A DNA stretch of 64,000 bases, taken from an uncultured Dehalococcoidales bacterium. GTDB lineage: Bacteria > Chloroflexota > Dehalococcoidia > GIF9 > UBA5629. Position numbers and translations under genes: made by a program. The DNA lies in NCBI GenBank assembly GCA_964605885.1, contig CAZSED010000011.1:1073-65072 (forward strand), given 5' to 3'. Positions 39,189-59,288 of this stretch are shown here, one piece after another. Position 1 is the first letter of the stretch; each line of letters opens with the position of its first letter. Under the pieces are notes generated by a model. It did no database searches, was not told where the DNA came from, and was given only the letters and a program-made list of their open reading frames with translations.

Positions 39189-40454
39189 TCAGGCTTTCTT
39201 GGGAGGTTTGAGAAGGAATACGGAAAGCAGTATGGCAACAAAGGCCAGCGCGGCGGTGATGATGAAGGCCTTGCTGTAATCGCCGAACATGTCCTTGGCC
39301 AGGCCCGAGATGAGACCGCCCAGCAGGGCGCCTATGCCATAGGCAAAGAAGACCACGCCGTAGTTGCGCGCATAATGCGTTGCGCCGAAGAAGGTGGTAG
39401 TGGAGGTTGGCGCAATGGCCAGCCAGCCGCCCAGGCACAGCCACAGGCCGCAGAAGCAGGCGATATAGAGTGCCGTCGTGCCCTGGCCCGCCTGCAGCAT
39501 GGCCAGCGCAGCGACCAGTATGACGGCCAGCGATACGACAGCCGCCCAGCGCGGTGTGATCCTGTCGGTAAGCCAGCCGAAGACAGGCCTGCCGATGCCG
39601 TTGAAGATGGCGAAAACGCCCACCAGCACAGCGGCGGTGGCCGCATCGATCTTGATGACCTCCGTTCCAACCGGGCTGGATATGCCGATGGCCATCAGGC
39701 CCGCCAGGCAGCCAATGGTGTAGGACAGGAACAGGCCCCAGAAGGTCCCTGTTTTCATCATTTGAGATGTGTTCAGTTCGGCTGCTGCACCCACGGCCGA
39801 TGCCTTGGGCGTCCAGCCGGCAGGTTTCCAGCCGGCGACGGGGAACTTGAGGGGAAGTGAAAGCAATATTACGATGATGAGGAAAGCAATGCCCATGGAA
39901 AGGAAGGTGAAGAGCGGGCCGCTGCTCTTGATGAGAGCGCTGGCAACATTGGCGCTGATAAAAGGCGAGCCGCCGAAGCCGGCCAGCGTCAGGCCCACAG
40001 CCAGGCCCTTCTTATCGGGGAACCAGCGTGCCGCAACCGCAATGGGGCCGCCATAAGCCAGTCCCACGCCTGCGCCGCCGATCACGCCGTAGGTCAATAC
40101 TACAGCCCAGATGCTGGGCCAGACATTGGGGAGCACGCCCGCCAGCAGCCAGCCCAGGCCGACCAGTATGCCGCCCACTATGCCGAGCTTGCGCGGTCCC
40201 AGCCTGTCCAGAACACGGCCGCCGAAGAACATCAGCAGTGCGAAGAAGGCCAGGAAGATCATGAACGGCAGGTTGCCCTCCATCGAGCCCACGGTGACAT
40301 TCTGCGTCTTGGCGAACCAGTCCTGCAGGGGTTTCTTGAACACGCTGAAGGCGTAGACACTGCCCAGGCATATATTGATGATGAAGCCCAGAAAAATAAA
40401 TATCCAGCGACCGCTCTCCGCCTTCATGCCGAATACTTTAGAATCTTCAGCCAT
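39189..40454 (-). CDS. MFS transporter of the oxalate/formate antiporter (OFA) family.
   Basis: N-terminal SGRWIFIFLGFIINICLGSVYAFSVF signature. 12 predicted TM segments. Positioned directly downstream of acs. Confidence 0.75.
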   Translation of the reverse strand: MAEDSKVFGMKAESGRWIFIFLGFIINICLGSVYAFSVFKKPLQDWFAKTQNVTVGSMEGNLPFMIFLAFFALLMFFGGRVLDRLGPRKLGIVGGILVGLGWLLAGVLPNVWPSIWAVVLTYGVIGGAGVGLAYGGPIAVAARWFPDKKGLAVGLTLAGFGGSPFISANVASALIKSSGPLFTFLSMGIAFLIIVILLSLPLKFPVAGWKPAGWTPKASAVGAAAELNTSQMMKTGTFWGLFLSYTIGCLAGLMAIGISSPVGTEVIKIDAATAAVLVGVFAIFNGIGRPVFGWLTDRITPRWAAVVSLAVILVAALAMLQAGQGTTALYIACFCGLWLCLGGWLAIAPTSTTTFFGATHYARNYGVVFFAYGIGALLGGLISGLAKDMFGDYSKAFIITAALAFVAILLSVFLLKPPKKA

Positions 40455-40544: not shown

Positions 40545-42524
<1,980 letters not shown>

Positions 42525-42613
42525 AGACTGCTGATGATCCTCCTTTATGTTATTTCATGTAATGGGCAGTTATTTATTTCCGCATGTATTTATGGAACAG
42601 GTAACTGGCTCAT

Positions 42614-42650
42614 AAAAAAGCGGTGAACACCTTATACCACTGTTCACCGC
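42614..42650 (-). terminator. Intrinsic terminator downstream of the AI-2E transporter gene.
   Basis: Minus-strand hairpin GCGGTGAACA-11 nt loop-TGTTCACCGC followed by TTTTTTAT. Confidence 0.65.
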
Positions 42651-42706
42651 ATAACATAATCCAAACGGAAATAATACAGTAAGGGACTATGCCTGTCAAG
42701 CTTGCA

Positions 42707-43795
42707 TCAGGCCTGCAGTTTTTGTTCCTTCTGCAAAGACCGGAAGTATTTAAAGATCTCCCAGATAGTGGCTGCTACAGGCACTGCCAGTATCATACCC
42801 CAGAACCCGGCCACGTACCCTCCCACTACCAGCAGCACCATGACCACGGCTGGATGCAGTTGCATGAATTTTCCCTGAATCCAGTTCAGCAGCACCGTAT
42901 TCAGTATCAGCTGCGCCAGCACGACTACCAGCAGAGCCCACAGCACCTTGGCTGGTTGCAGCGCCAGTGTAATAATCAATATGATCAGGCCGGAGATGAC
43001 AGGCCCGACTATGGGTATGAACTGCGTGACGGCCGTCACGGCGCCCAGCGCAGGCGCGTAGTCGACCTGCAGTACCCACAGCCCGATGAAGACCATGAAC
43101 CCCACGATGGCGCCCAGTATGATCTGTGCCCGTATATAGCGCCCCATGACGTCGCCGATAATCCCCAGCACCCTGCCCAGATGGGCGGCCGCACTCGTGG
43201 GCACCAGGTTGCGGAAATAGTCCTGGAAGGACTCGTAGTCCATTAATATGAAGAACAGGAAGAAGGGCAGTGTCACAAAGCCCATTATGGTCGGCGCACT
43301 GGCCGGTATCACGGCCATGCTGCCCACCAGGAAATCCTGGATGAATTTGCCCACGGCCGGGCCAAGCCCGGCAACCATGCTCTCAAACTGGTTAATAAAG
43401 CTCCCCGGCAAACCCAGCTTAAAGATTCTAATCCACTCGTTAACCTGGCCCATGCTCTTCTCTATGAACTCGGGCGCCCGGTTGATCAGCACCTGTGAAG
43501 CAGCCACCAGAGCGGCTCCCACATAGATGGTGAAGAGTACAAGCACGGCCAGCGCTGCGATAAATACAATTACAACCGATATTATCCGTTTGGCTTTCTG
43601 CATACGTCCCCTGAAAGGCAATACCCTTTCCAGCAACTTCACCAGAGGCATCAGCAGGTAGGCCAGCAATATCCCTACCAGGAAGGGGATGAGAACGGCC
43701 ATGGAAACGATGGCCAACCAGATGACAAGGACGATAATAGCCAGTATCACCAGGGGCTGGACGTATTTTCTTAAGGTATTACTTTCTGATGCCAA
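42707..43795 (-). CDS. AI-2E family (UPF0118, PerM-like) transporter.
   Basis: About 360 aa with 8 TM helices in an AI-2E-like arrangement. Assignment is by topology and composition. Confidence 0.55.
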   Translation of the reverse strand: MASESNTLRKYVQPLVILAIIVLVIWLAIVSMAVLIPFLVGILLAYLLMPLVKLLERVLPFRGRMQKAKRIISVVIVFIAALAVLVLFTIYVGAALVAASQVLINRAPEFIEKSMGQVNEWIRIFKLGLPGSFINQFESMVAGLGPAVGKFIQDFLVGSMAVIPASAPTIMGFVTLPFFLFFILMDYESFQDYFRNLVPTSAAAHLGRVLGIIGDVMGRYIRAQIILGAIVGFMVFIGLWVLQVDYAPALGAVTAVTQFIPIVGPVISGLIILIITLALQPAKVLWALLVVVLAQLILNTVLLNWIQGKFMQLHPAVVMVLLVVGGYVAGFWGMILAVPVAATIWEIFKYFRSLQKEQKLQA

Positions 43796-43898: not shown

Positions 43899-44111
43899 TT
43901 AAACGTCCTCTTCGGACAGCTTGCTCGACACCGCCTCTCTGACCCGTCCGGCCGCCCTGGCGGCCTTTTCTTTAAATTCCTTCGATTTCTCTTTAACAAC
44001 GCGGCGGGTCTCTTCGCCCGGTTGGGGAGCGTACAACAGCGCCACGGCTGCTCCAATCACCGCACCGATGATCAGGCCGGCAAAAAATCCTGCGCTGGAA
44101 TCTCTACTCAT
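43899..44111 (-). CDS. YtxH-like small protein.
   Basis: A GxxxGxxxG TM helix (GFFAGLIIGAVIGAAVALLYAP) followed by a charged helical tail. It lies downstream of the DUF948 gene, as in the B. subtilis ytxG-ytxH pair. Confidence 0.5.
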   Translation of the reverse strand: MSRDSSAGFFAGLIIGAVIGAAVALLYAPQPGEETRRVVKEKSKEFKEKAARAAGRVREAVSSKLSEEDV

Positions 44112-44391
44112 CGTCTTCCTCCTTTTTCTTCTTGAATACCTTGCTGAACAGGCTTATACCTTCAATTAGCCCCTGTATCAGCGTCCCGAACTGGCTGATC
44201 GGCCTTATCAGCTCCTTATCGGCATAATCTATAATTCCGCCCACCTGGTCAACTACCCCGTTGGCCGATTCCAGCAATGTCATGGTCCTTCTGTAAAACA
44301 GGTACACTATCACGGCAATGAAGATAATCGCCACAGTGGCTATCAGGCCCCAGATAACGATCACCATGTCACGCCACCCTGCTAAATCCAT
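44104..44391 (-). CDS. DUF948 (YtxG-like) membrane protein.
   Basis: N-terminal TM helix followed by a helical domain and a poly-Lys/Glu/Asp tail. It overlaps the ytxH-like gene by 8 nt. Confidence 0.5.
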   Translation of the reverse strand: MDLAGWRDMVIVIWGLIATVAIIFIAVIVYLFYRRTMTLLESANGVVDQVGGIIDYADKELIRPISQFGTLIQGLIEGISLFSKVFKKKKEEDDE

Positions 44392-44421
44392 AGATCACCT
44401 CCTTGCTGATATTAAGTGCTC

Positions 44422-46308
44422 CTAGAGATTTAACCTCAGATAATACAAGCCTTCACCGCTGCTGACTATCTTGAAGCCGGCTTTCTCAAATATGGAGAGC
44501 ATGGGCATGTTCTCATACAATACCTCGGCCACAAAGGCCAGCAGGCCATTTTTTTTACCAAGGTAAATAAGGTACTGTAAAAGCTCGCTGCCGATGCCCT
44601 GTCTCTGATAGTTATCCCGGACGGCAAAGGCCACCTCGGCGCTGTGGACGTCCTGGCCGATGCCGTACTGCCCGATGCCCAGTATCTTTTCGTTTTCCTC
44701 CTCTCCCTCGGTGGCCAGTATCACCATCTCCTGCGTGTAGTCGATGACCACGAACTCCTGCAGGCGCTCGTGCGGCATGTCCTTCCTGCTGGAGATGAAC
44801 CTGCGGTAGAGGCTTTGATCGGAAAGCGCGTAGAAGAAGTCCTTGACCAGGGGCTCGTCGCTTATCTTGACCGGCCTGAAAAGGACTTCCTTCCCGCTTT
44901 TCATACGGCGGACGGACTCCAGGTTCTCCGGATACTCACCCCGCTTACCCGGCACGAAGGCCTGGTCGCGGTATATCAGGTTCAGCTTCTTGGCCTCCTC
45001 GATCAGCCAGGGCCGGAACTTGGGATGCGCGATGGAGATAAGCTCCATGGCGCGCTCGCGTATGTTCTTGCCGTGCAGGTAGGCGATGCCGTACTCCGAG
45101 ATAACGTAATGTATATCCCCACGCACCATAGTCACGCCCGAGCCCTCGTTAAGGAAGGGGACAATCCTTGACACCGTATCGTCCTGGGCGGTGGACTGGA
45201 TGGTGAGTATGGTTTTGCCGTTATGCGCCAGTATGGCGCCGCGCATAAAATCCGCCTGGCCGCCCACACCGCTGTAAAAGGTCTTGCCCAGCGATTCGGC
45301 CGTGGCCTGGCCGGTCAGGTCTATCTCCAGCGCGCTGTTGATAGCCACCATGTTCTCATGGCGGGCTATAACCAGCGGGTTGTTGGTGTACTCTATCGTC
45401 CTGAATTCCACCGAGGGGTTGTCATTGATGAATTCATAGGTCTCTTTCCTGCCCATGCAGAACGTCGCCACAGTCTTGCCCCTGTCGACCTTTTTGCTGG
45501 AATTATCTATTACTCCCTGTTTCATCAGCTCCGCAATGGCATCGGACATCAACTCCGTGTGCACGCCCAGGTGCTTCTTGGCGGAGAGGCTCATTAATAT
45601 GGAGTTCAACCGGCTGCCATAGCCCACCTGGATGGTATCGCCGTCCTGGATTAGGCGTGAGACGTAGGAGCCGATCTTAGAAGCCACCTCATCGTTGACA
45701 GGAGAGTCGAACTCGAGTACCGGCTCATCATGCCGCACCAGGTAATCGATGCCGTCTATGTGCAGAAATCCGTCCCCGTGCACGCGCGGCATGTTGGCAT
45801 TGATCTGGGCGATTACCAGATCGGCTTTTTCAACCGCGGCGTTGACGATGTCCACGCTGATGCCCAGGCTAACGTACCCGTGGTGGTCGGGCAGGGAGGT
45901 TTGTATCAGGGCCACGTCCACAGGCACTATACCGCGCTGAAACAGCTCCGGCACCTGGGAAAGAAAGATAGGGGTGTAGTCAGCCAGGCCGGCATTTACC
46001 GCGGAGCGCGTGTTGTCGCCTATAAAGAAGGAATTGTGCCTGAAATTGGATTTGAATTTTTCCTGCGTATAGGCCGCCACGCCCAGCGTCCAGACCTGCA
46101 GCACTTCTGCATCGAAAAAGGCCTTGGGATTTGATTCCACGTAGTTGACCAGTGCATTCACCAGGTACTGGGGCTCGGCGCAGGCCGTGCTGATGAATAT
46201 GCGGCTTCCGGGATGGATCCTGCCGAATATTTCTTTCTCCGGGGCGAATTTCTGTGGATACCTGTCCTTCAGATTATCAAGTTCCGATTCACCGGGTTTA
46301 TCACCCAT
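44422..46308 (-). CDS. Fusion protein of a family-I CoA-transferase (acetyl-CoA hydrolase/transferase, 4-hydroxybutyrate CoA-transferase-like) and a C-terminal GNAT acetyltransferase domain.
   Basis: CoA-transferase C-domain signature SGVGGQADFMRGA. C-terminal GNAT motif A is RQGIGSELLQYLIYLGKKNG, with ENMPMLSIFEKAGFKI. Total length 628 aa. Confidence 0.7.
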   Translation of the reverse strand: MGDKPGESELDNLKDRYPQKFAPEKEIFGRIHPGSRIFISTACAEPQYLVNALVNYVESNPKAFFDAEVLQVWTLGVAAYTQEKFKSNFRHNSFFIGDNTRSAVNAGLADYTPIFLSQVPELFQRGIVPVDVALIQTSLPDHHGYVSLGISVDIVNAAVEKADLVIAQINANMPRVHGDGFLHIDGIDYLVRHDEPVLEFDSPVNDEVASKIGSYVSRLIQDGDTIQVGYGSRLNSILMSLSAKKHLGVHTELMSDAIAELMKQGVIDNSSKKVDRGKTVATFCMGRKETYEFINDNPSVEFRTIEYTNNPLVIARHENMVAINSALEIDLTGQATAESLGKTFYSGVGGQADFMRGAILAHNGKTILTIQSTAQDDTVSRIVPFLNEGSGVTMVRGDIHYVISEYGIAYLHGKNIRERAMELISIAHPKFRPWLIEEAKKLNLIYRDQAFVPGKRGEYPENLESVRRMKSGKEVLFRPVKISDEPLVKDFFYALSDQSLYRRFISSRKDMPHERLQEFVVIDYTQEMVILATEGEEENEKILGIGQYGIGQDVHSAEVAFAVRDNYQRQGIGSELLQYLIYLGKKNGLLAFVAEVLYENMPMLSIFEKAGFKIVSSGEGLYYLRLNL

Positions 46309-46383: not shown

Positions 46384-46419
46384 AGGGAAAAAGAAAAGGC
46401 CCTGCTATGTGGCAGGGCC
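46384..46419 (-). terminator. Intrinsic terminator downstream of the lipoprotein gene.
   Basis: Minus-strand hairpin GGCCCTGC-cacata-GCAGGGCC followed by TTTTCTTTTTCCC. Confidence 0.7.
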
Positions 46420-46442
46420 TTTCTCTAATCGCTGTATAAAAT

Positions 46443-47419: not shown

Positions 47420-48112
47420 TTGATGGGATTCAAGATAGTTATTGCCGACAGCAACGCAAACTTCATGAGCATGCTGGGCCGGGCACTGCTCGACGCTGAC
47501 TATGTGCTCTACCCGGCCGAATCAAGGGAAAGTGCACTCAAACAGATAACGCAATACGATATTGACGCCTGCATAATAGACGTGGACCTGCCCGGCGGTA
47601 TAGAAGAAGTGCTGCAGGCATGCATGACTAAATCAAAGCCCATCGTCGCCATGGGCACATCCGTTCTTAAGGAGACCGATAAGCTCATCGAGATCATGTA
47701 CTACGGTATACCGTACGTGAAAAAGTTCAATAACGAGGGCCAGGCCAAGCTGGATCATATTATCGCCCGCATGAATGTGCTGCTGCGGACGCTGCTTATC
47801 TTCAGCAAGGACTCCGAGTACCAGCGCGGCGTCATAGCCGGCCTGGAAAGCAAGGGCTACAAGGTCTTTACCGCTGAAAAGGCCGACGACCTGATGCGCT
47901 CCTTCCTGCTGAGCGAACCAAAAGCCGTGCTTGTCTACTTCCCCAATGAGGAGGACCTGGAGGAGCTGAATAAAATCAGGAAAATCGACTCGCAGCTCCC
48001 GATCGCCATTGTGCTTAACAATCAGTCTTCCGAGGCTGCCGATGTGCCGGACACAAAGTCCACCAAAATCCTCGGGCAGGAAGACGTTTCAGACTATCTG
48101 GACAACCTCTGA
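47420..48112 (+). CDS. Orphan response-regulator-like protein with two receiver-like domains and no output domain.
   Basis: The first REC has an acidic pocket and the putative phospho-Asp context IIDVDLPGG. The second half is REC-like but degenerate. Confidence 0.55.
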   Translation: MMGFKIVIADSNANFMSMLGRALLDADYVLYPAESRESALKQITQYDIDACIIDVDLPGGIEEVLQACMTKSKPIVAMGTSVLKETDKLIEIMYYGIPYVKKFNNEGQAKLDHIIARMNVLLRTLLIFSKDSEYQRGVIAGLESKGYKVFTAEKADDLMRSFLLSEPKAVLVYFPNEEDLEELNKIRKIDSQLPIAIVLNNQSSEAADVPDTKSTKILGQEDVSDYLDNL

Positions 48113-48119
48113 TTAAAAG

Positions 48120-50108
48120 TCAGATGGTAATCGGTACGCTTACGTTGACGGTCGACCCCCTTCCAGGCTCGGTCTTGATGGTCAGGGATCCGCTGAGAAG
48201 AGTAACCCTTTCCTGCATACCCACCAGTCCCAGCTTGCCTGCGTGAGAGAGGTCGCCCACAGTCTTGGGTAGCTCGAAGCCCCTGCCGTTATCACTGATG
48301 GTGACCACAACCTCCGTATCTGTAAACTCAATGTGCACGGAAGCCTGCGTGGCCTGGGCGTGCTTGCTGACATTGTTGAGCGCTTCCTGCACTATCCTGA
48401 AGAGGATGAGTTCCATCTCGGGCAGCAGGCGCTGCTCTTTTCCATCGATTTTGAGCCCGATATCGATTCCGCTTTCCTCAGATTTTTGCTTGACCAGCCA
48501 CTTAACGGCCGGCAGCAGACCCAGGTCATCGATAATAGATGGCCTCAGGTCCTGGCTGAAGCGCCTGATGCCCTGCAGCGTGACGCCTATCCTGCGCCTT
48601 ATCTCCTGCAGCACAGTCCGCTGCTGCTGGGTCAGGCTGGAATTGCCCCTGATAAAATTGTCCATCTGCCTGGATATGGCAAATAAAGCCTGGGCAGTAT
48701 CGTCGTGCAGCTCGCGCGCCACCCTTTTCCGCTCCTCCTCCTGGGCCCTGGTGATCTGGTTGAGGTAGTAGCGAAGGTTGTTCTGCATCCTCCTCTCTTC
48801 CGTCACGTCGCGTGCTATGTGTTGGAAGCCCACCGGCTCGTCGTCGATGGTCATCAGACTGGAGGTAACCATCACGGTCTTGCGCACGCCGTCCTTGGTA
48901 ACCGTCTGCTGCTCGTAGGGCTGTGGGAACGGCTCTCCATTCAACAGTTTGTGCCGGACCTCCCTGGCCAGGTTGAGCATTCCCTCATCCATGAACTCCT
49001 GCACGTTCCGGCCGATGAACTCCCCGGTGGGGTATCCGGTCAGCTCCTGCGATGCCCTGTTAGCCGCCAGTATCTTGCCGCTTATATCGTGGAACCAGAT
49101 GGCATCATGAGCATTTTCGAACAGATTGCGATAGTCCCTGGCTGACTTGTAAAGCTGGTCGGCTATTTGCCGCGCCTCCTCGTACAGCGTGGCGTTGGAG
49201 AGGGCCGAGGCCAGCTGTCCGGCTATGGTGCTCAGCAGGTCGATCTCGTCCGGCAAAAAGGTGCGAGGACGGCGCATGGCCACGCACAATGTGCCTATGA
49301 CCTCACCCTTGGATTTCATGGGCACTATCAGCTCGGGGTGTATCTTGTTGCGGATGATGGCCGGCCGGGTGAGACGGGGATCGTTGGAGGCGTCAGGCAC
49401 CAGCATAACTTCGCCGGTGGCGGCAACCTGCCCGTTGAATCCTTCTCCAAGCTTGACCTGGTCAAGCTCCCGGGCGGTCTCGCTGGAGATGCCCTCGTAG
49501 GCGGTCAGCGTCAGCTCATTCTGGGACTGCATGGTGTAGACCAGGATGACCTCAACCTCCATGACCTCGCCCACCATATCCACCGCCGTCTCGATGACCT
49601 TGGCCGGGTCAAGGTACTGGCTCAGCGCATTGGAGATTGTATTCAGCGTTGCCAGCCTCCTGGCATTGGCCCTGGCCTCACGGATTCTCGTCTGCAGCTG
49701 CTCCTGTGTGTTCTCCAGCGCAGACACGGCCTTGACATAGCGCCTGTCGTCATTATCCTTAATGCGCACCCAGTTAATAAAGGCCAGCCCGGCAATGGTG
49801 ACCAGCGCCACTTCCAGCAGGGCGTCGCTAACGTTGACGGAATAGAGCAGCGCCTGCGGCAGCATCACGGCCAGCGATGCGCCCAAGGCAATCAATCCCG
49901 GCAGAATGCCCATTATGAAACCCGTATAGAGCACGATCAGAAGGAACAGGTTCCGCTCTACCGTATGCCGGCTGAGGTTAAAAAGGAAAACGTCCAATTT
50001 AAAGCCGGGCCAGATGATGTCGCGGTAGAGGAAGAGGGTCACTATAACAAACAGGACCAGTACGACCCAGAACTGGTAGCGGGTCCATATTTTATAAGGG
50101 ATCCTCAT
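48120..50108 (-). CDS. Sensor histidine kinase (TM, GAF, PAS, HisKA_3, HATPase_c; NarL-partner type).
   Basis: N-terminal TM helices. GAF region (LVYTMQSQNELTLTAYEGIS), PAS region (AIWFHDISGKILAANRASQELTGY), HisKA_3 H-box ELHDDTAQAL, and an ATPase N-box/G-boxes (LNNVSKHA, GRGFEL, GLVGMQER). Confidence 0.8.
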   Translation of the reverse strand: MRIPYKIWTRYQFWVVLVLFVIVTLFLYRDIIWPGFKLDVFLFNLSRHTVERNLFLLIVLYTGFIMGILPGLIALGASLAVMLPQALLYSVNVSDALLEVALVTIAGLAFINWVRIKDNDDRRYVKAVSALENTQEQLQTRIREARANARRLATLNTISNALSQYLDPAKVIETAVDMVGEVMEVEVILVYTMQSQNELTLTAYEGISSETARELDQVKLGEGFNGQVAATGEVMLVPDASNDPRLTRPAIIRNKIHPELIVPMKSKGEVIGTLCVAMRRPRTFLPDEIDLLSTIAGQLASALSNATLYEEARQIADQLYKSARDYRNLFENAHDAIWFHDISGKILAANRASQELTGYPTGEFIGRNVQEFMDEGMLNLAREVRHKLLNGEPFPQPYEQQTVTKDGVRKTVMVTSSLMTIDDEPVGFQHIARDVTEERRMQNNLRYYLNQITRAQEEERKRVARELHDDTAQALFAISRQMDNFIRGNSSLTQQQRTVLQEIRRRIGVTLQGIRRFSQDLRPSIIDDLGLLPAVKWLVKQKSEESGIDIGLKIDGKEQRLLPEMELILFRIVQEALNNVSKHAQATQASVHIEFTDTEVVVTISDNGRGFELPKTVGDLSHAGKLGLVGMQERVTLLSGSLTIKTEPGRGSTVNVSVPITI

Positions 50109-50147: not shown

Positions 50148-50813
50148 TCAGGGCAGCTCTTCCAGGGTCAGCCAGCCTTTTTTCAGGCCGTAAACGATGG
50201 CTTCCGAGCGTGAGCCCACGCCCAGCTTGTTGAATATGCTGCGCAGGTGCGTCTGCACCGTCCTCACGCTCAGGGTCAGGCTATCGGCGATCTCCATGTT
50301 GCTCATGCCCTTGGCCGCCAGGAGCAGGACTTCCATTTCACGGTCGCTCAGCACCTCGCCCAGGGTCTGTGTCGTCTGTTCTTCGGCAGGAGACCTCAAC
50401 CTGTTGAGGACCTTCTTCATGATCTTGGGATGAAGCACCGGCTCTCCGGTCATGACCTGCCTTATGGCGTCGATCAGTTCCTCGCCGCTGGACTCCTTGA
50501 GCAGATAGCCGGCAGCACCCGCCTCCAGCAGCGCAAAAACATATTCGTCATCATCGTAGCCTGTTAATACCAGTACTGCCATATTGGGATAGAGCGCCTT
50601 GATCTGCTTGGTGGCCTCTATGCCATTAAGCCTGGGCATGGAAACATCCATAATAATGATCTCGGGCTTCAACCTTTTGGCAAGCTCCACCGCTTCAATG
50701 CCGTCGCTGGCTTCGCCTGTTACTTCAAAATCTTCCTGGGATTCCAAGAGGCGCCGGGTTCCTTCGCGCACCACTTTGTGGTCCTCAGCCAGCAGGATCC
50801 TGATTCTCTCCAT
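50148..50813 (-). CDS. NarL/LuxR-family response regulator.
   Basis: REC domain (ILLAEDHKVVREG...IIMDVSMP) plus a C-terminal LuxR HTH (MEIADSLTLSVRTVQTHLRSIFNKLGV). Confidence 0.9.
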   Translation of the reverse strand: MERIRILLAEDHKVVREGTRRLLESQEDFEVTGEASDGIEAVELAKRLKPEIIIMDVSMPRLNGIEATKQIKALYPNMAVLVLTGYDDDEYVFALLEAGAAGYLLKESSGEELIDAIRQVMTGEPVLHPKIMKKVLNRLRSPAEEQTTQTLGEVLSDREMEVLLLAAKGMSNMEIADSLTLSVRTVQTHLRSIFNKLGVGSRSEAIVYGLKKGWLTLEELP

Positions 50814-51580: not shown

Positions 51581-52093
51581 ATGGCAAAGGTAAAGTCAGC
51601 CCCAATACCCGCTTCAGATACGGGAAGAGGCTTTGCGGGCAAGGCGTTCCAGCGCATCCAGGGCATCATCGATGATACGGGCGGTCAGGCCGGGGCACCC
51701 ATACGCGTGCTGCAGCAGGCGCAGGGCATAGTCGGATACCTGCCCCCCACAGTGCTCAAAACCATTTCAAGGGACCTCAAGATCCCCCTGGCCGAGCTTC
51801 ACGGCGTAGTCACCTTCTACAGTTTCTTTACCATGCAGCCCAAGGGCAGGCACGTCATCCAGGTCTGCCTGGGCACCGCCTGCTATGTGAAAGGCGGCCA
51901 GGATATCCTGGACATCCTGAAAAAGGATTACGGACTTGAACCGGAAGGCATAACTCCCGACGGCAAGTTCTCCCTGGAGATCGTACGCTGCCTGGGCTGC
52001 TGCGGCCTGGCGCCGGTCATTGCCATCGGCGACGATATCCACCGCAAGGTCAAACCCGGCCAGATGAAAGACATTCTGAGTATGTACCACTAG
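51581..52093 (+). CDS. hoxE: NuoE/HoxE-like [2Fe-2S] thioredoxin-fold diaphorase subunit.
   Basis: Cys ligands in CLGTACYVKGG and VRCLGCCGLAPV. AGGAGG RBS. Length 170 aa. Confidence 0.85.
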   Translation: MAKVKSAPIPASDTGRGFAGKAFQRIQGIIDDTGGQAGAPIRVLQQAQGIVGYLPPTVLKTISRDLKIPLAELHGVVTFYSFFTMQPKGRHVIQVCLGTACYVKGGQDILDILKKDYGLEPEGITPDGKFSLEIVRCLGCCGLAPVIAIGDDIHRKVKPGQMKDILSMYH

Positions 52094-52105
52094 GAGGTAA
52101 ATGAA

Positions 52106-55100
52106 GTGCCTAAGATAACCTCTATTGAAGATTTAAATAAACTTAAGAAAGCCGTCGAACCCAGGCTGAAGATCCGCGCGGATGCGGATTTTGGCCATTT
52201 CAAGGGCACCCCGGAGATCTGCATCCAGCAGTGCAGGGGCATGGGCTGCACCGCAGCCGGGGGCGATAAGGTGACCGAAAAATTTGAAGAGCTGATCGCT
52301 AAGAAGGGCATCGGCGGCAAGGTCAATATAGTCAGGACCGGCTGCCTCGGCCCCTGCGAGATGGGCCCGACTGTGATCGTCAACCCCGGTGACATCCTTT
52401 ACGTCAGGGTCAAGCCCGAAGATGTGCAGGAAATCTTTGAGAAGCATATTTTAAACGGCCAGATCGTGGAGCGCCTTGTCTATCACGACCCCACCACCAA
52501 TGAGGCTGTGCCCGAACGGCTTAAGATCAACTTCCTGGCCGACCAGGAGTTCCGCATCCTGCATAACAACGGCATCATCGACCCCTGGAACATCGAAGAG
52601 TACATAGCCCGCGGCGGCTATGAAGCGCTGGCCAGGGCCCTGTATAAGATGAAGCCGGAGGACGTCCTGGAAGAGGTCAAGAAGTCCGGCCTTCGCGGCA
52701 GGGGCGGTGCAGGCTTCCCCACGGCCACCAAGTGGGGCTTCCTCAAAAGCTCGCCCGGCACGGTCAAATACCTGGTCTGCAACGGCGACGAGGGAGACCC
52801 CGGCGCATATATGAACCGTGCGGTGCTGGAAGGCAACCCCCATTCAATAATAGAAGGTATGGCTCTGGGCGCTTACGCCGTGGGCAACGTCAGCCAGGGC
52901 TTCGCCTATATACGTGCCGAGTACCCGCTGGCCATCGAAACACTCAGCGCGGCCATCGCTCAAGCCCGTGAGTACGGGCTGCTCGGCAAAAACATACTGG
53001 GCACCGATTTTCAATTCAACCTGGACATTTTCCCCGGCGCGGGAGCTTTCGTCTGCGGCGAGGAGACGGCTCTGCTCATCTCTATCGAGGGCAAGCGCGG
53101 CATGCCGCGGCAGAGGCCCCCCTTCCCCTCGGATAAGGGCCTTTTTGGCAAGCCCACGGCCATCAACAACGTGGAAACCTGGTCCATAGTTCCCAGGATC
53201 ATTCGTGAGGGCGCAGACTGGTTCGCCTCTGTGGGCAGCGATAAGAGCAAGGGCACCAAGTCCTTCAGCCTGGTAGGCAAGGTCAATAACGTCGGCCTGG
53301 TCGAGGTGCCGCTGGGCACCAGCCTGGGCAAGATAGTATTCGATATCGGCGGCGGCGTGCCCAAGGGCAAGAGGTACAAGGCCACCCAGATGGGCGGCCC
53401 CTCGGGCGGCGTCATACCCATAGAACACGTCAACGTGCCGGTCGACTACGAGTCCGTCACGGCGCTGGGCGCCATTATGGGCTCGGGCGGCCTGGTCGTC
53501 ATGGACGAGGACAACTGCATGGTGGACATCGCCAAGATGTTCCTGGGCTTCACCAGGGACGAGTCCTGCGGCAAATGTGTCCCCTGCCGTGCCGGCATAC
53601 CTAAGCTGCTCTCAATACTGAACAAGATCACCAGCGGCCAGGGCACCATGGAGGACCTGGATATCCTGCAGGAACTTTCGGAGATGATCCAGAGTTGCTC
53701 CATCTGCGGCCTGGGCCAGACGGCCCCCAACCCGGCTGTGTCTACGCTGAGGCACTTCAGGGAAGAGTATGAAAGCCACATCATCGACAAGCACTGCCCG
53801 GCCTCGCTCTGCCAGGCTCTGTTCCGCGCACCCTGTCAGCATACCTGCCCGGTAGGCCTGGATGTGCCCGGCTATATGGCGCTGACCAAGGAAGGCAGGC
53901 CGGCTGACGCCTACAAGCTCATCAGCCAGAGGCTGCCGCTTCCCATGACGGTAGGCCGCGTCTGCCCTCATCCCTGCGAGAAGAAATGCCGCAGGGGCCA
54001 GGTGGACGAACCCATCGCCATCAGGCATATAAAGAGGTATGTATCGGACTTTGCCTGGGAGCACAACCTCTCCTACGTGCCTGAGATCAAGGGCTCGAAG
54101 GCTGAGAAAGTGGCCATAATCGGCGCAGGGCCGGCGGGGCTCTCCGCAGCCTGGGACCTGGCAGTCGAGGGCTACAAGGTAACCATCTTCGAGGCCCTGC
54201 CTGTGGCGGGCGGCATGCTGGCCGTGGGCATACCTGAGTACAGGCTCCCCAAGGACGTACTGAATAAGGAAATCGATAATATTAAGAAGCTGGGCATCGA
54301 GATCAAGCTCAACAGCCCGGTCAAGGACATAGATTCACTCTTCAAGGACGGCTACAAGGCCGTGTTCGTGGCCATCGGCGCCCACAAGGGCGACAAGATG
54401 GGCATACCCGGCGAGGAGCTGTCAGGCGTCTATGACGCCATAGACTTCCTGCGGAATATAAACCTTGGCAAAGAAATCTCCATCCGAAGCAAGGTTGCCG
54501 TCATCGGCGGCGGCAACTCGGCTATCGACGCCGCCAGGGTGGCGGTTCGCAAGGGCGCCAAGGAAGTGCACATAGTATACCGCCGCGAAAAAGTGGATAT
54601 GCCTGCTGAAGAGGAAGAGATTGCAGCAGCCGAGGAAGAGGGCGTGAAGCTCCACGTCCTGGCCGCGCCGGTCAAGGTGATCGGCAAGGACGGCAAGGTG
54701 TCTGCTATTGAATGCGCACGCATGGCGCTCGGAGAGTTCGACAGGAGCGGCAGGCGTTCACCCAAGCCCATACAGGGCTCAGAGTTTACCCTTGAAGTGG
54801 ACATGCTGATCGAGGCCATCGGCCAGAGGCCGGACACCGCCTCAATGAACCTGGGCGGCGCCAAGACCGGCAAGGGCGGAACGCTGGTTGCCGATAAACG
54901 GACGCTGGCCACAGAGCAGAAGGGGGTCTTCGTCGGCGGTGACGCCTTTACCGGCCCCTGGACAGTTATTGAGGCCATCGCATCCGGCCAGAGGGCTGCC
55001 TCATCCATCAAACGCTTCCTGAGCGGTAAAGAGCTCGGTCCCAGGGTCGACCGCAAGGATCCCGAGACCATCGAATACAACCATATCGCCCCCACTGACG

Positions 55101-55246
55101 AAGAGACCAGCCCGCACCCAAGGGTTGCAATGAAGGAAATACCGCTGGCCGAGAGGAAGTCTACGTTCAAGGAAGCCGTGGTCAACTTCACCGCCAAGGA
55201 AGCCAAGGAAGAATGCACCCGATGCCTGCGATGCGATATCGGATAG
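52106..55246 (+). CDS. NuoF/HoxF-like NAD(P)H-binding flavoprotein with an N-terminal extra [2Fe-2S] thioredoxin-like domain, fused to a C-terminal GltD/NfnB-like FAD/NAD(P)H oxidoreductase module.
   Basis: N-terminal CRGMGC...CLGPCEMGP (2Fe-2S). NuoF FMN and NADH site GLRGRGGAGFPTATKWGF. N3 cluster ESCGKCVPCRAG...CSICGLGQTA. This is followed by two GltD-type [4Fe-4S] Cys clusters (CQHTCPVG, CPHPCEKKC) and dinucleotide folds VAIIGAGPAGLSAAWDLA and VAVIGGGNSAIDAA. GTG start at 52106 with AGGAGG 8 nt upstream. Length 1046 aa. Confidence 0.85.
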   Translation: MPKITSIEDLNKLKKAVEPRLKIRADADFGHFKGTPEICIQQCRGMGCTAAGGDKVTEKFEELIAKKGIGGKVNIVRTGCLGPCEMGPTVIVNPGDILYVRVKPEDVQEIFEKHILNGQIVERLVYHDPTTNEAVPERLKINFLADQEFRILHNNGIIDPWNIEEYIARGGYEALARALYKMKPEDVLEEVKKSGLRGRGGAGFPTATKWGFLKSSPGTVKYLVCNGDEGDPGAYMNRAVLEGNPHSIIEGMALGAYAVGNVSQGFAYIRAEYPLAIETLSAAIAQAREYGLLGKNILGTDFQFNLDIFPGAGAFVCGEETALLISIEGKRGMPRQRPPFPSDKGLFGKPTAINNVETWSIVPRIIREGADWFASVGSDKSKGTKSFSLVGKVNNVGLVEVPLGTSLGKIVFDIGGGVPKGKRYKATQMGGPSGGVIPIEHVNVPVDYESVTALGAIMGSGGLVVMDEDNCMVDIAKMFLGFTRDESCGKCVPCRAGIPKLLSILNKITSGQGTMEDLDILQELSEMIQSCSICGLGQTAPNPAVSTLRHFREEYESHIIDKHCPASLCQALFRAPCQHTCPVGLDVPGYMALTKEGRPADAYKLISQRLPLPMTVGRVCPHPCEKKCRRGQVDEPIAIRHIKRYVSDFAWEHNLSYVPEIKGSKAEKVAIIGAGPAGLSAAWDLAVEGYKVTIFEALPVAGGMLAVGIPEYRLPKDVLNKEIDNIKKLGIEIKLNSPVKDIDSLFKDGYKAVFVAIGAHKGDKMGIPGEELSGVYDAIDFLRNINLGKEISIRSKVAVIGGGNSAIDAARVAVRKGAKEVHIVYRREKVDMPAEEEEIAAAEEEGVKLHVLAAPVKVIGKDGKVSAIECARMALGEFDRSGRRSPKPIQGSEFTLEVDMLIEAIGQRPDTASMNLGGAKTGKGGTLVADKRTLATEQKGVFVGGDAFTGPWTVIEAIASGQRAASSIKRFLSGKELGPRVDRKDPETIEYNHIAPTDEETSPHPRVAMKEIPLAERKSTFKEAVVNFTAKEAKEECTRCLRCDIG

Positions 55247-55259
55247 GAGATAAGGCAAA

Positions 55260-57221
55260 ATGAGTGAAATAACATTAACCATTAATGGAAAACAGGTCAA
55301 AGGCAACCAGGGCGATACCATCCTGGATATCTGCACGGCCAACGGCATAGACATACCCACTCTATGCCACCATAAAGGCCTGACCGACGTTGCCGCCTGC
55401 AGGCTCTGCCTGGTCGAGATCGAGAAGGAAAGGGGCCCCAGGCCCGCCTGTACCTATCCGGCACGCGACGGCCTGGTGATAAATACCAGCAGCGAAAAAC
55501 TGGAAAAGTACCGCCGACTGATACTGGAGTTGCTCTTCACGGAGAGGAACCACCTGTGCGCTTACTGCGTCGCCAGCGGCGATTGCGAGCTGCAGAGCAT
55601 GGCCTACCGCTACCAGATGGACAGCACGCGCTACCAGTACTCCTGGCCCAACGTTATAGTCGATTCTTCCCATCCCTACGTGGTAATGGACCACAACAGA
55701 TGCATACTGTGCGGCAGGTGCATCAGGACCTGTGACGAGATCACAGGCGCCCACGCACTGGACTTTGGCAAGCGCGGCTGGAAGACCATGGTCTGCGCCG
55801 ATATCAACCAGCCCCTGGGCGAGTCCTCTTGCATCTCCTGCGGCGGCTGCTTTCAGGCATGCCCCACAGGAGCAATCTTCTCCAAGGGAAGCGCCTACAA
55901 GGGAAGGCCGGATGAATGCCAGGCCGTTGAATCGACCTGCGCCATCTGCGGCATTGGCTGCGACATCAAGGGGCTGGTCAAGGACAATAAGGTCGTCAGG
56001 ATAGACAGCCCGGACATGACCAGGCCGCGCGGCCTGCTGTGCGATATGGGACGTTTCGGACCGTTGTATAAAGCTGCGGAGAGGATCACGACCCCCATGA
56101 AGAAAAACACCAAGGGCCAGCTGGTTGATTGCACTTATGATGAAGCTTTCGAGGCCATCGCCAAGAAGCTCGGCGGCCTTTCAAGCATGGCCGGCCTGGC
56201 TTCCAGCAAAGCCAGCACGGAGGCCCTCAAGGCTTTCGCGGACTTAATGACCAGGACACTGAACAGCAAAATGGTCGATACCCTGGACGGGGATGATTTC
56301 AGGACCATTTCTGCAGCGACCGCCCAGGCTGGCGGCGACGGCAACCTGAAAATGGAGGCCAAGCTCGAGGATATCCTGATCGCGGACTGCATTCTGGTCA
56401 TCGGGGCACATCCCATCAAGACACACCCGGTGATCGGCTCATATATTATGCGCGCCGCTACCAAGAACAAGGCACAACTGGTCGTTCTTGACCCGTTGCG
56501 CAATCCCTTCACCTTCCGCGCCACCGCCTGGCTGAAGCCGGCCGAGGGCAAGGAAGGACTGACCATCAAGGCCCTGGGCAATGCCATCCTGGATCACGGC
56601 CTAGCCAAGACCGCCGGCGATAAGAACAAGTTTGGAGCCGAGTTCAAGGAGGTCGAAGCCAAGAAGGCCGCCAAGGACCTGGGAATCGACGTCCATGATA
56701 TTTATAAGTCGGCCGAGGCTCTGGCCGAGGCCAAGAACGTCGTCATCATTTACGGCAACGGCATTCTGCAGTATAAGAACCCTGACCTGGTGACCACCAT
56801 ACTGAACCTGGCCGGACTGGTCAGCAGCAAACCCAGGGTCATCTCATTGAAGAGGAACGGCAACAGCCGGGGCGCCTGGGAGATGGGAATCAGCAATGTT
56901 AAAAGCTCGGTCATGGCCGAGGTAGCCAAAGGAAAGGCCAAGGGGCTGTACCTGCTGCTGGCTGACGACATGGCCGACTCGCAGGCGCTGGCTGACAGCC
57001 TGAAAGGGCTGGACTTCCTGGTTGTGCAGGCCAGCTACCAGTCGCCGGTTACGGCCAAAGCCAACGTGGTGCTGCCCTCTTTGCTGTGGACTGAGGCAAA
57101 AGGCAGCTATACCACACTGGACGGCATAAGCAAGTCCACCAGACCCATGGTCAAGTCCATGGCGGAGATAAAAGATGACGCGGCAACCCTGAAAGAGGTT
57201 GCCGGGCATCTGAAGAAATAA
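55260..57221 (+). CDS. NuoG/formate-dehydrogenase-alpha-like Fe-S subunit, N-terminal cluster modules plus a partial molybdopterin-oxidoreductase fold.
   Basis: [2Fe-2S] CHHKGLTDVAACRLC; His-ligated [4Fe-4S] CAYCVASGDCELQ; two ferredoxin-type clusters CILCGRCIRTC and CISCGGCFQACP; the MopB Fe4S4 domain CAICGIGCDIKGL. At 653 aa it is too short for a complete catalytic FdhA. Confidence 0.8.
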   Translation: MSEITLTINGKQVKGNQGDTILDICTANGIDIPTLCHHKGLTDVAACRLCLVEIEKERGPRPACTYPARDGLVINTSSEKLEKYRRLILELLFTERNHLCAYCVASGDCELQSMAYRYQMDSTRYQYSWPNVIVDSSHPYVVMDHNRCILCGRCIRTCDEITGAHALDFGKRGWKTMVCADINQPLGESSCISCGGCFQACPTGAIFSKGSAYKGRPDECQAVESTCAICGIGCDIKGLVKDNKVVRIDSPDMTRPRGLLCDMGRFGPLYKAAERITTPMKKNTKGQLVDCTYDEAFEAIAKKLGGLSSMAGLASSKASTEALKAFADLMTRTLNSKMVDTLDGDDFRTISAATAQAGGDGNLKMEAKLEDILIADCILVIGAHPIKTHPVIGSYIMRAATKNKAQLVVLDPLRNPFTFRATAWLKPAEGKEGLTIKALGNAILDHGLAKTAGDKNKFGAEFKEVEAKKAAKDLGIDVHDIYKSAEALAEAKNVVIIYGNGILQYKNPDLVTTILNLAGLVSSKPRVISLKRNGNSRGAWEMGISNVKSSVMAEVAKGKAKGLYLLLADDMADSQALADSLKGLDFLVVQASYQSPVTAKANVVLPSLLWTEAKGSYTTLDGISKSTRPMVKSMAEIKDDAATLKEVAGHLKK

Positions 57222-57241
57222 ATGCCCCAAGGAGTGATCAG

Positions 57242-57778: not shown

Positions 57779-57788
57779 GAGGTGAAAA

Positions 57789-59216: not shown

Positions 59217-59288
59217 GTAGAGTACAGGCACAGTTCAAGGCGGGTTACAAATTTGTAACCCGCCTTTCTTTTCTGATATCGTTTCAAC

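Follow-up and report, generated by a model that had tools for sequence, protein, structure and literature searches.

Genes and transcription units at the fusion locus

The window, meaning the whole 64-kb stretch of DNA that was analysed, carries on its reverse strand a gene for a 628 amino acid protein in which a family I CoA-transferase is fused to a GNAT acetyltransferase (CoAT-GNAT, hereafter the fusion). The features of the locus, from the upstream boundary onwards, were as follows:

46394..46423 (-): terminator-like hairpin that follows the PsbP-like gene lying upstream, marking the 5' boundary of the transcription unit of the fusion
44422..46308 (-): CoAT-GNAT fusion gene, 628 aa, one unbroken ORF; residues 16-440 form a 4-hydroxybutyrate-CoA-transferase-type family I CoA-transferase, residues 441-474 a conserved linker with EYPxxLE, and residues 475-628 a Pat-type GNAT
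44104..44391 (-): ORF for a 95-aa single-pass membrane protein, 31 bp 3' of the fusion and conserved in 16 closely related Dehalococcoidia loci
43899..44111 (-): YtxH-like gene, 70 aa (PF12732, E 2.4e-16), with an 8-nt overlap with the 95-aa ORF
42707..43795 (-): AI-2E family transporter gene, 362 aa (PF01594, E 6e-52)
42671..42699 (-): sigma-70-type promoter-like site upstream of acs, near consensus (TTGACA-17-TATTAT, 11/12 matches)
42610..42647 (-): terminator-like hairpin between the AI-2E transporter gene and acs, with a 10-bp stem GCGGUGAACA/UGUUCACCGC followed by UUUUUU
40545..42524 (-): acs, AMP-forming acetyl-CoA synthetase, 659 aa (NF001208, 1058.7 bits), 1.9 kb downstream of the fusion
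40534-40505 (-): strong terminator after acs
39189..40454 (-): MFS monocarboxylate transporter gene downstream of acs (375 bits vs cut-off 320 on the L-lactate MFS model NF049980)

The preliminary description had assigned the fusion to positions 44104-46308, a range that contains the fusion ORF (44422-46308) and also takes in the small membrane ORF at 44104-44391. It had further called the adjoining genes ytxG- and ytxH-like; the second name is borne out by the PF12732 match, whereas the first is unsupported, with only a sub-threshold match to DUF948 (PF06103, E 0.093, 13.4 bits vs cut-off 37.2). No terminator was detected before the AI-2E transporter gene and a hairpin with a U-run followed it, and this gene is probably the last of the unit opened by the fusion gene. 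The promoter-like site of acs and the intervening terminator set acs apart from the transcription unit of the fusion, so that in the window acs apparently has a promoter and a terminator of its own and lies near the fusion but outside its operon. The local synteny of the fusion and acs was dropped as evidence by itself, the gene order being found only in close Dehalococcoidia (L001-L016).

The product of acs retains the C-terminal regulatory lysine context reported earlier, with K622 lying within the PX4GK motif PKTRSGK as a candidate acetylation target, and two other AMP-binding ligases with PX4GK motifs were identified in the window. No deacetylase was present among the annotated ORFs, which make up approximately half of the ORFs of the window, and tblastn retrieved no gene encoding ADP-forming acetyl-CoA synthetase (ACD) or a DRTGG protein elsewhere in the 64 kb. 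An Rfam scan of the whole window gave zero matches, and a riboswitch in the acs leader is not claimed, since 11 of 200 shuffles of the leader fold at least as well (z = -1.8).

Domain identity and residue conservation of the fusion

Three Pfam domains exceeded their gathering cut-offs in the fusion, namely AcetylCoA_hydro (PF02550, residues 16-197, E 2.5e-54, 184.7 bits vs cut-off 24), AcetylCoA_hyd_C (PF13336, residues 286-439, E 8.7e-63, 211.3 bits vs cut-off 23.7), and the GNAT domain Acetyltransf_1 (residues 517-612, E 1.3e-11). Residues 1-440 matched the first two only and contained no ACD-type domain (CoA_binding_2, Succ_CoA_lig, or ATP-grasp_5). A frameshift, a pair of separate genes, or an assembly artefact was excluded by the unbroken ORF, the identical protein encoded by a single gene in each of three independent metagenome assemblies, the single-ORF CoAT-GNAT architecture of 120/120 best database homologues, and the presence of the fusion in at least 428 GTDB species representatives; the protein put forward in the preliminary description is real, and its architecture is present in other genomes. 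These carriers, with 65-84% identity, span many bacterial and archaeal phyla, including Dehalococcoidia, Bipolaricaulota, Syntrophales, Desulfobacteria, and Spirochaetota as well as Thermoplasmatota, Methanomassiliicoccales, Methanotrichaceae, and Asgard archaea, and are mostly anaerobic fermenters, syntrophs, and archaea gaining ATP from acetyl-CoA. A full-length AlphaFold2 model built on a 34-sequence alignment had a mean pLDDT of 59.9 and a pTM of 0.50, with residues 303-455 below 50; it was discarded for inter-domain geometry and domain contacts on account of this low confidence, and fold identities were therefore taken from sequence matches to solved structures.

The CoA-transferase half (residues 16-440) matched solved 4-hydroxybutyrate CoA-transferases over its full length (E 1e-114 to 1e-97, 386.7 bits). 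E252 aligned, within an H(T/S)E motif, with E238 of AbfT (3gk7), which is reported to be the nucleophile forming the glutamyl-CoA thioester (Macieira et al. 2009). Residue conservation was counted in a close family of 80 members and in a separate set of 29 more divergent CoAT-GNAT clusters. In the close family the nucleophile was Glu in 80/80 members, and the glycine-rich GXGGQXDF motif associated with the oxyanion and CoA binding, read previously as SGVGGQADF and located here at S346-F354, was equally constant (G349, G350, and F354 each 80/80). The nucleophile Glu and GGQxDF are common to the fusion and the solved enzymes 3gk7 (AbfT), 3eh7, 9vag, and 2oas, and we infer that the CoA-transferase domain of the clade of the window could still form the Glu252-CoA thioester. 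Stand-alone 4-hydroxybutyrate and butyryl-CoA:acetate CoA-transferases differ in being approximately 430-450 aa long without a GNAT domain, and in having GIGAIPDA in all five solved examples compared where the fusion clade has an invariant GYG (Y230 80/80). The butyryl-CoA:acetate CoA-transferase equivalog model TIGR03948 scored 273 bits, below its cut-off of 674.8.

The GNAT half (residues 449-628) aligned end to end with residues 709-880 of E. coli PatZ (E 5e-20), followed among PDB entries by the GNAT domain of SlPatA (4nxy, E 8e-17), MtPat, MsPat, and SsPat, while RimI-type GNATs matched at E ~1e-4 and small-molecule GNATs at 1e-4 or weaker. The segment EYPxxLE preceding the GNAT domain and the segment LYxRF were also common to the fusion and the Pat lineage, to which the GNAT half, as judged from these alignments, specifically belongs. 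As far as is known, all characterised GNATs of this lineage are protein lysine acetyltransferases (compare PMC8556138). E558 aligned with the catalytic Glu of PatZ, E809 (PMC12184503), and was kept in 76/80 members of the close family with Asp in three more. Motif A (Q568-x-x-G571-x-G573) was intact, with RQGIGS at residues 569-574 and G571 in 79/80 members; inspection found neither its loss nor a frameshift or stop. The best NCBIfam match of the region was the mycobacterial Pat model NF058543, at 76.5 bits against a cut-off of 460 and over model positions 132-273 only, accompanied by weak matches to RimI and ArsN1.

The two halves varied differently among the 29 divergent clusters. The GNAT base was Glu or Asp in 28/29, whereas the CoA-transferase nucleophile was replaced (I, V, Q, S, A, C, or D) in 11/29 and the GGQxDF motif was often degraded. 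This near-constant retention of the GNAT base together with loss of the nucleophile suggests that the GNAT domain is the constant catalytic module of the wider CoAT-GNAT family. Pat follows the same pattern of an unvarying GNAT next to a large domain that is often dead, its synthetase-like domain having no catalytic His (PMC8556138).

Linkage to Acs and ACD and proposed function

Outside the clade of the window, bona fide Acs proteins (at least 54% identity, full length) were encoded no more than 10 kb from the fusion in 12/63 loci (P ~4e-9, with an assumed chance of 2% per locus). The conserved lysine target motif was kept in 22/23 of the neighbouring Acs proteins. The commonest partner across the family was ACD and not AMP-forming Acs; its gene lay directly 3' of the fusion on the same strand in 27/63 loci, often with overlapping stop and start codons, and the phospho-His motif was kept in 28/29 ACD neighbours, identifying them as real enzymes. 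Among the 37 loci flanked on each side by 3 kb or more, Acs or ACD stood beside the fusion in 29, and essentially never both. Acs-linked and ACD-linked members were interleaved in the tree of the fusion protein, and repeated switches between partner types have taken place. At the family level the link to acs is real, recurring in distant phyla and in differing gene arrangements. The local distance of 2 kb, offered earlier as a functional clue, is weak evidence by itself. Among the flanks of six divergent family members, on short contigs, an ACD-type neighbour was identified in one only (P0158), so the Acs/ACD linkage is a trait of the highly conserved subfamily of the window and not demonstrably of the whole superfamily. 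Some family members were found in unrelated contexts, including a leuC/leuD/leuB/leuA cluster in one Chloroflexota clade, an OEP and NTP-transferase pair, or nothing recognisable.

Judged by its sequence, the fusion most probably represents a new type of architecture among Pat-like protein acetyltransferases, with the acetate/acetyl-CoA node as its site of action. The fuller reading, a Pat-like lysine acetyltransferase of unclassified architecture that is paired with Acs or ACD and has the CoA-transferase domain as its sensor, is tentatively favoured, stopping a little short of an even chance. Under this proposal the GNAT domain would move acetyl groups from acetyl-CoA onto the active-site lysine of acyl-CoA synthetases with E558 as general base, and acetylation would switch the target synthetases off. 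K622 of the neighbouring Acs would be the target in the window, with the two other PX4GK ligases as further possible targets. The CoA-transferase domain would fill the position of the dead ADP-forming-synthetase-like domain of Pat/PatZ and act as the metabolic input, with acetyl-CoA or a different short acyl-CoA as its ligand, and with a Glu252-CoA thioester still formable the GNAT activity would follow the acyl-CoA/acetate balance. Across the family the same protein would partner the enzyme at hand for interconverting acetate and acetyl-CoA, be it AMP-forming Acs or ADP-forming ACD.

Several points run counter to this proposal. The invariance of E252, G349, and G350 (80/80) indicates that the CoA-transferase domain may be a working enzyme rather than, or besides, a sensor, and ACD, the commonest partner, is not a known Pat-type substrate. 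The separation of acs from the transcription unit of the fusion in the window, the unrelated contexts of some family members, and the lack of a deacetylase among the annotated half of the ORFs also weigh against it. Because the large domain keeps its catalytic residues, whereas the regulatory domain of Pat is catalytically dead, a sensor in the Pat position and a bifunctional enzyme look alike at the level of sequence.

The most serious alternative, which we nevertheless regard as unlikely, treats the fusion as mainly a metabolic enzyme in which an acyl-CoA:acetate CoA-transferase makes acetyl-CoA from other short acyl-CoAs, ACD or reverse Acs converts this to acetate and ATP, and the GNAT is an attached regulator, acetylating the partner synthetase, or the transferase itself, when acetyl-CoA accumulates. 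The invariant nucleophile and oxyanion motif of the 80-member clade, the 386.7-bit full-length match to 4-hydroxybutyrate CoA-transferases, the translational coupling to ACD in the 27 loci and its retained phospho-His, the enoyl-CoA hydratase genes found 3' of the fusion in several loci, and the anaerobic hosts gaining ATP from acetyl-CoA are all consistent with such a role, as is the reverse use of Acs to make ATP in Syntrophus (PMC4992975). It leaves a fused and nearly always intact Pat-type GNAT unexplained, however, and sits poorly with the 11/29 divergent clusters that have lost the nucleophile yet keep the GNAT and with the low TIGR03948 score. The logic of such a metabolic enzyme resembles that of the acetate:succinate CoA-transferase/succinyl-CoA synthetase cycle.

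A bolder extension, speculative and on balance unlikely, would make CoAT-GNAT the sixth class of protein acyltransferases in prokaryotes, one both ancient and widespread, in which a live CoA-transferase, through its covalent Glu-CoA state or acyl-CoA made on the spot, sets what the Pat-type GNAT writes and when. The enzymes under the control of such a class would be both the AMP-forming and the ADP-forming acetyl-CoA synthetases of anaerobic bacteria and archaea (among them Asgard archaea, methanogen relatives, and syntrophs), the CoAT-GNAT | ACD pair would be the evolutionary precursor of the GNAT-ACD (type II) Pat, and ACD would for the first time be seen to be regulated by acylation.

A self-supplying lysine acyltransferase appears distinctly unlikely. 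Here the CoA-transferase, drawing on acetyl-CoA, would activate a free carboxylic acid (propionate, butyrate, lactate, or 4-hydroxybutyrate) to the acyl-CoA form and the GNAT would write the matching acyl-lysine, reporting the organic acids available. Both active sites are intact on one polypeptide, and the L-lactate-type monocarboxylate transporter adjoins acs in the window. Pat-type GNATs are, however, mainly acetyl or propionyl transferases, the poor AlphaFold2 model lends no support to channelling, and the scheme is impossible for clusters without the transferase nucleophile. A precedent in trans exists in E. coli, where YdiF makes lactyl-CoA and the GNAT YiaC uses it for lysine lactylation (PMC9636275), and in syntrophs, which are related to the host lineages, the acyl-lysine marks are unusually diverse and their writer was not identified (PMC8942843). 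Acetylation of a small molecule, be it an amino acid, a polyamine, or a compound resembling an antibiotic, with the acetate linkage reflecting acetyl-CoA supply only, is highly improbable, since the great diversity of GNATs, the weak RimI and ArsN1 matches, and the leucine-biosynthesis context of one Chloroflexota clade are set against closest solved relatives that are, by many orders of magnitude, Pat-lineage lysine acetyltransferases sharing even the lineage-specific N-terminal extension, with small-molecule GNATs matching only at 1e-4 or weaker.

Reversible lysine acetylation of acetyl-CoA synthetase is textbook post-translational metabolic control in bacteria, with known writers such as Pat/PatZ, AcuA, and mycobacterial Pat originating for the most part in aerobes and model organisms. 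Lineages with the fusion live on the acetate/acetyl-CoA couple, where ATP yield is set by how fast and in which direction Acs or ACD runs. In the literature found, no acetylation writer was named for these anaerobic lineages, no description of a CoA-transferase-GNAT fusion or of its Acs/ACD partnership was given, no paper linked ACD with lysine acetylation, and the Syntrophus acyl-proteome and Acs1 papers made no mention of such a protein (PMC8942843, PMC4992975). [quoted passage not shown]

Comparison with known acetyltransferases

The five-type scheme of GNAT lysine acetyltransferases does not include the CoAT-GNAT architecture (PMC8556138, PMC12184503). The preliminary suggestion of an undescribed Pat-like architecture is supported by this absence and by the Pat-lineage GNAT, but the large domain is catalytically intact, unlike that of Pat. 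The closest counterparts are the type I enzymes (Salmonella Pat and E. coli PatZ/YfiQ), whose GNAT is of the same lineage, with E809 corresponding to E558 and with the P-loop, EYPxxLE, and LYxRF in common (PMC12184503). Both carry at the N terminus a large domain that binds acyl-CoA and goes back to an enzyme of acetate/acetyl-CoA metabolism, and both are associated in genomes with AMP-forming Acs bearing the PX4GK lysine. They differ in the nature of that domain, a family I CoA-transferase in the fusion and ADP-forming acyl-CoA-synthetase-like in Pat/PatZ, in its catalytic nucleophile, kept in the fusion clade while the synthetase-like regulatory domain of Pat has lost its catalytic His (PMC8556138), and in length (628 aa vs approximately 886 aa). 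Unlike Pat/PatZ, the fusion is often operonic with a genuine ACD.

The type II enzyme SlPatA of Streptomyces lividans has a closely related GNAT domain and no CoA-transferase domain. In the 27 loci where the GNAT end of the fusion abuts the ACD gene, the resulting order GNAT-ACD is that found inside SlPatA, although the ACD-like part of SlPatA is fused and inactive whereas in the fusion loci ACD is a separate gene with its phospho-His. The type III enzymes, comprising cAMP-regulated MtPat/MsPat and the ACT-GNAT proteins of actinobacteria, resemble the fusion in placing a Pat-type GNAT behind a swapped-in ligand-binding input domain. Their input is a small cNMP or ACT module, compared to the approximately 440-aa enzyme fold binding CoA thioesters in the fusion, and the score of the latter on the mycobacterial Pat model lies far below the equivalog cut-off. 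Finally, in E. coli the family I CoA-transferase YdiF cooperates functionally with YiaC, a GNAT lysine acyltransferase, the two being separate proteins (PMC9636275). The active site of YdiF is of the EXGXXG/GXGGF type and YiaC is a GNAT of another type than Pat, placing both in other subfamilies than the halves of the fusion, and the YdiF and YiaC pair has no known link to Acs or ACD.

Structure of the fusion gene and its two halves

The fusion gene was identified as one uninterrupted minus-strand ORF of 628 codons (46308-44422), without a stop or frameshift that would divide it in two; the range assigned in the preliminary description (44104-46308) also covered an adjoining ORF for a 95-aa membrane protein. 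All three expected Pfam domains exceeded their gathering cut-offs by far, and both quoted motifs were recovered (SGVGGQADF at residues 346-354 and RQGIGS at 569-574).

Pfam domains of the fusion protein
Residues 16-197, AcetylCoA_hydro (E 2.5e-54)
Residues 286-439, AcetylCoA_hyd_C (E 8.7e-63)
Residues 517-612, Acetyltransf_1 (E 1.3e-11)

An identical protein was encoded as one gene on contigs of three independent metagenome assemblies, the three-domain content was common to 120/120 of the top-scoring homologues in the database (608-671 aa, 69-83% identical), and at least 428 species were found to encode the fusion when one genome for each GTDB species was scanned with a pattern. The fusion is therefore not an assembly artefact, and its original observation is confirmed. 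Homologues were labeled only "GNAT family N-acetyltransferase" or "acyl-CoA hydrolase/GNAT superfamily N-acetyltransferase".

Residues 16-440 gave full-length matches to 4-hydroxybutyrate CoA-transferases of solved structure (3eh7, E 1e-114; 9vag, 2e-112; 2oas, 1e-104; AbfT, 3gk7, 1e-101), and by sequence the large domain clearly belongs to the AcetylCoA_hydro CoA-transferase fold family. It reached no curated equivalog cut-off, scoring 273 bits against the 674.8 bits of the NCBIfam equivalog for butyryl-CoA:acetate CoA-transferase. Glu252, within an H(T/S)E motif, aligned with AbfT Glu238, which we take to be the nucleophile, as Macieira and colleagues are said to have reported in 2009. The window's clade carried an invariant GYG at 229-231, whereas all five solved stand-alone enzymes aligned, including AbfT, had GIG.

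Residues 449-628 aligned over their full length with residues 709-880 of E. coli PatZ (E 5e-20), followed by Streptomyces PatA (8e-17), the Pat proteins of M. tuberculosis (4e-13) and M. smegmatis (2e-12), and Sulfolobus Pat (4e-7). RimI and phosphinothricin acetyltransferases, the GNAT class that came after these, appeared only at ~1e-4. The match extended to a pre-core segment EYPxxLE...RP and an LYxRF motif, likewise carried by PatZ and SlPatA. Glu558 aligned with PatZ Glu809, the proposed catalytic residue (PMC12184503), and motif A was intact as Q568-x-x-G571-x-G573.

Conservation within the close family and the wider superfamily

Conservation was scored over 80 aligned sequences, the window protein and 79 translated orthologues of other species.

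Key residues in the close-family alignment
E252, kept 80/80
G349 and G350, kept 80/80
F354-G357, kept 80/80
E558, kept 76/80, plus 3 Asp
G571, kept 79/80
G573, kept 74/80

E252, the putative nucleophile, was kept throughout, and conservation of key residues in both halves argues that both active sites are under selection in the window's clade. The fusion protein is unusually conserved: outside the window's own clade, identity to the window protein was nearly flat (~66-71%, in bacteria or archaea) compared to 54-72% for Acs in the same genome pairs, and archaeal fusion proteins nested within bacterial ones in a neighbour-joining tree computed without bootstrap support. This combination suggests strong constraint plus horizontal transfer.

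An exhaustive HMMER search of 1.84 billion cluster representatives with the GNAT region gave 10,842 matches at E <= 1e-3 (41 at E <= 1e-30), the best 150 of which included ~30 separate 50%-identity clusters of 585-665 aa with a C-terminal GNAT; 10/10 tested by Pfam were CoA-transferase-GNAT fusions, two of them ~960 aa long. When 29 divergent clusters were aligned with the window protein, using the conserved GxHT context as the anchor, the GNAT base was Glu or Asp in 28/29 and the CoA-transferase nucleophile was replaced in 11/29 (I, V, Q, S, A, C, or, five times, D), with the GGQxDF motif often degraded. The GNAT would thus be the catalytic module that stays constant, joined to a large domain that is frequently non-catalytic, such that transferase chemistry appears dispensable superfamily-wide.

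Longer proteins of ~960 aa (P0173, P0176, and locus L084:6001-8883) carried an extra N-terminal ~330 aa with 4Fe-4S dicluster motifs before the two fused domains. Their CoA-transferase nucleophile was replaced (by V or Q), and this form may be a redox-sensing variant.

Gene context in the window and across the family

The fusion gene headed a series of minus-strand genes that included acs.

Features around the fusion gene
46423-46394 (-), terminator-like site just upstream of the fusion gene (consensus scan)
46308-44422 (-), fusion gene (ORF and Pfam)
44391-44104 (-), 95-aa membrane ORF
44111-43899 (-), YtxH
43795-42707 (-), AI-2E transporter
42699-42671 (-), sigma-70-like promoter, 11/12 (consensus scan)
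42647-42610 (-), 10-bp hairpin and U-run after the AI-2E gene (consensus scan)
42524-40545 (-), acs
40534-40505 (-), strong terminator-like site after acs (consensus scan)
40454-39189 (-), MFS monocarboxylate transporter
39121-36212 (-), uvrA

The consensus scan found no terminator between the fusion and AI-2E genes, and the placement of terminators, promoter, and hairpin indicates that acs is probably a separate transcription unit. The 11/12 promoter and the hairpin (42610-42699) precede the acs ribosome-binding site, and the hairpin could be the terminator of the upstream unit or an acs leader attenuator; the intergenic region had no Rfam match and a folding z-score of only -1.8. The single-pass 95-aa ORF directly 3' of the fusion gene was kept in 16 close relatives, and its 8-nt overlap with the YtxH gene suggests translational coupling. 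Its best family similarity was not significant (DUF948 at E 0.09), leaving its earlier ytxG-like annotation unsupported.

The proposed link to acs held at the family level, as full-length Acs (54-72% identical to that of the window) was encoded within 10 kb in 12/63 loci outside the window's clade. Locally it was weaker, since the window gene order recurred only in 16 closely related Dehalococcoidia loci and acs is probably its own unit; proximity in the window alone is weak evidence.

Family gene context provided the strongest functional evidence, based on clustered ORFs with annotated representatives from 80 fusion loci. Hosts of the 12 Acs-linked loci were Borrarchaeum (Asgard archaea), another archaeon, a Lyngbya assembly, Thermodesulfobacteriota, Desulfobacteria, and a different Dehalococcoidia lineage, with at least five arrangements, among them a same-strand acs upstream of the fusion (about -230 to -290 bp) and a convergent acs at either +70 to +390 bp or ~+0.9 to 1.2 kb. 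At an assumed chance of 2% per locus, this frequency has P ~4e-9. The main partner family-wide was ADP-forming acetyl-CoA synthetase (ACD), usually separated from the fusion by -3 to +14 bp, and the phospho-His motif SHTG(S/A)L kept in 28/29 ACDs marks these as real enzymes rather than Pat-like relics. Among the loci outside the window's clade that had 3 kb or more of flanking sequence on each side, 29/37 (78%) carried one partner type or the other; in L035, the sole locus scored with both, the second was an unrelated 24%-identical ligase and not Acs. Placement beside enzymes interconverting acetate and acetyl-CoA is non-random. Acs- and ACD-linked members were interleaved in the fusion tree (neighbour-joining, without bootstrap support), which with archaea among bacteria suggests that the partner was switched several times while the link to an acetate/acetyl-CoA-converting enzyme persisted.

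A gene for a ~345-aa DRTGG and AAA_26 protein, like the Pta regulatory N-terminal domain without the catalytic domain, lay 3' of ACD in 26 loci, usually ~+2.1 kb from the fusion gene, forming a conserved unit of fusion, ACD, and DRTGG genes (among them L017, L019, L021, L028, L029, L039, L040, L047, L048, L050, L052, L056, L057, L060, L064, L066, L069, L071, and L072). In Thermodesulfobacteriota/delta-proteobacterial loci, a conserved ~265-aa ORF without a Pfam match lay between the fusion and convergent acs (L030:12147-12944 and equivalents in L034, L058, and L061). In a Chloroflexota clade (L031, L033, L046, and L074; fusion at ~10001-11860), the fusion separated leuC from leuD, with leuB and a leuA/cimA-type acetyl-CoA-using synthase next in order, and another group adjoined an outer-membrane efflux protein and an NTP-transferase. 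Among six divergent clusters, only P0158 had an ACD-type neighbour, an ATP-grasp_5 gene (ACD beta type) 3 bp before it; the other five, on short contigs, had none.

Elsewhere in the window, a GAF-PAS-HisKA_3 histidine kinase (48120-50108, -) and LuxR-type response regulator (50148-50813, -) lay upstream of the fusion unit beside an atypical protein (47420-48112, +) that contains part of a receiver domain, an arrangement kept in close relatives. A further cluster (51581-59921, +) encoded a NuoE-like 2Fe-2S protein, a 1046-aa NuoF-like fusion (Complex1_51K, Fer4, and Pyr_redox), an Fe-S protein of 653 aa, and a protein of 475 aa whose N-terminus presumably resembles the large subunit of [NiFe]-hydrogenases; a soluble NAD(P)-linked hydrogenase is the probable identity. 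Several Thermodesulfobacteriota loci likewise had NuoE/NuoF-like genes close to the fusion gene.

Proposed function and comparison with Pat enzymes

This fusion polypeptide, strongly conserved across two domains of life with both active-site sets intact, is tentatively favored as a Pat-like protein acetyltransferase, although every function given here is read from sequence. Its GNAT would acetylate the PX4GK lysine of Acs, lying at K622 within an 11-residue stretch of the window enzyme, and perhaps of other AMP-forming ligases. The CoA-transferase domain would give an acyl-CoA-dependent input, as does the dead synthetase-like domain in PatZ; with Glu252 kept, this input could be a covalent Glu-CoA state dependent on the acyl-CoA/acid ratio, or the domain could be a working transferase. 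Two AMP-binding acyl-CoA ligases with PX4GK lysines (10223-11791, +, and 11809-13500, -; K511 and K553) are possible further targets; they belong to a second acyl-CoA-related group (4371-13500), which also encoded a stand-alone GNAT (4371-4925, +) and an acyl-CoA dehydrogenase (8866-10023, -).

A less probable reading is a metabolic CoA-transferase whose product the neighbouring ACD or Acs would use to make ATP, the GNAT serving as a regulator attached to it; this fits the kept nucleophile of the close family but does not explain its frequent loss among divergent clusters. Self-supply of an acyl donor for non-acetyl lysine acylation, with a precedent in trans in YdiF/YiaC (PMC9636275), is unlikely. 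These two and the Pat-like reading are not mutually exclusive. A small-molecule acetyltransferase is improbable, the GNAT aligning best with Pat proteins.

This widespread and strongly conserved protein is a candidate for a regulator, or for a bifunctional enzyme, that acts at the acetate switch in anaerobes and archaea. Its predicted working is Pat-like, but it belongs to none of types I, II, or III: Pfam, NCBIfam, and solved-structure matches included no NDP-forming-synthetase-like, cNMP, ACT, or NADP domain. The five types of GNAT lysine acetyltransferases do not include this architecture (PMC8556138; PMC12184503), and neither the fusion nor ACD acetylation was found in 8 million full texts, subscription-only titles lying outside them. 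The suggested Pat-like architecture and its apparent novelty stand. In type I and II Pat, the synthetase-like domain is inactive because it lacks the catalytic His, yet binds acetyl-CoA and is required for activity (PMC8556138; PMC12184503). The divergent clusters often follow the same pattern of a non-catalytic large domain beside a retained GNAT, a step that the window's subfamily has not taken.
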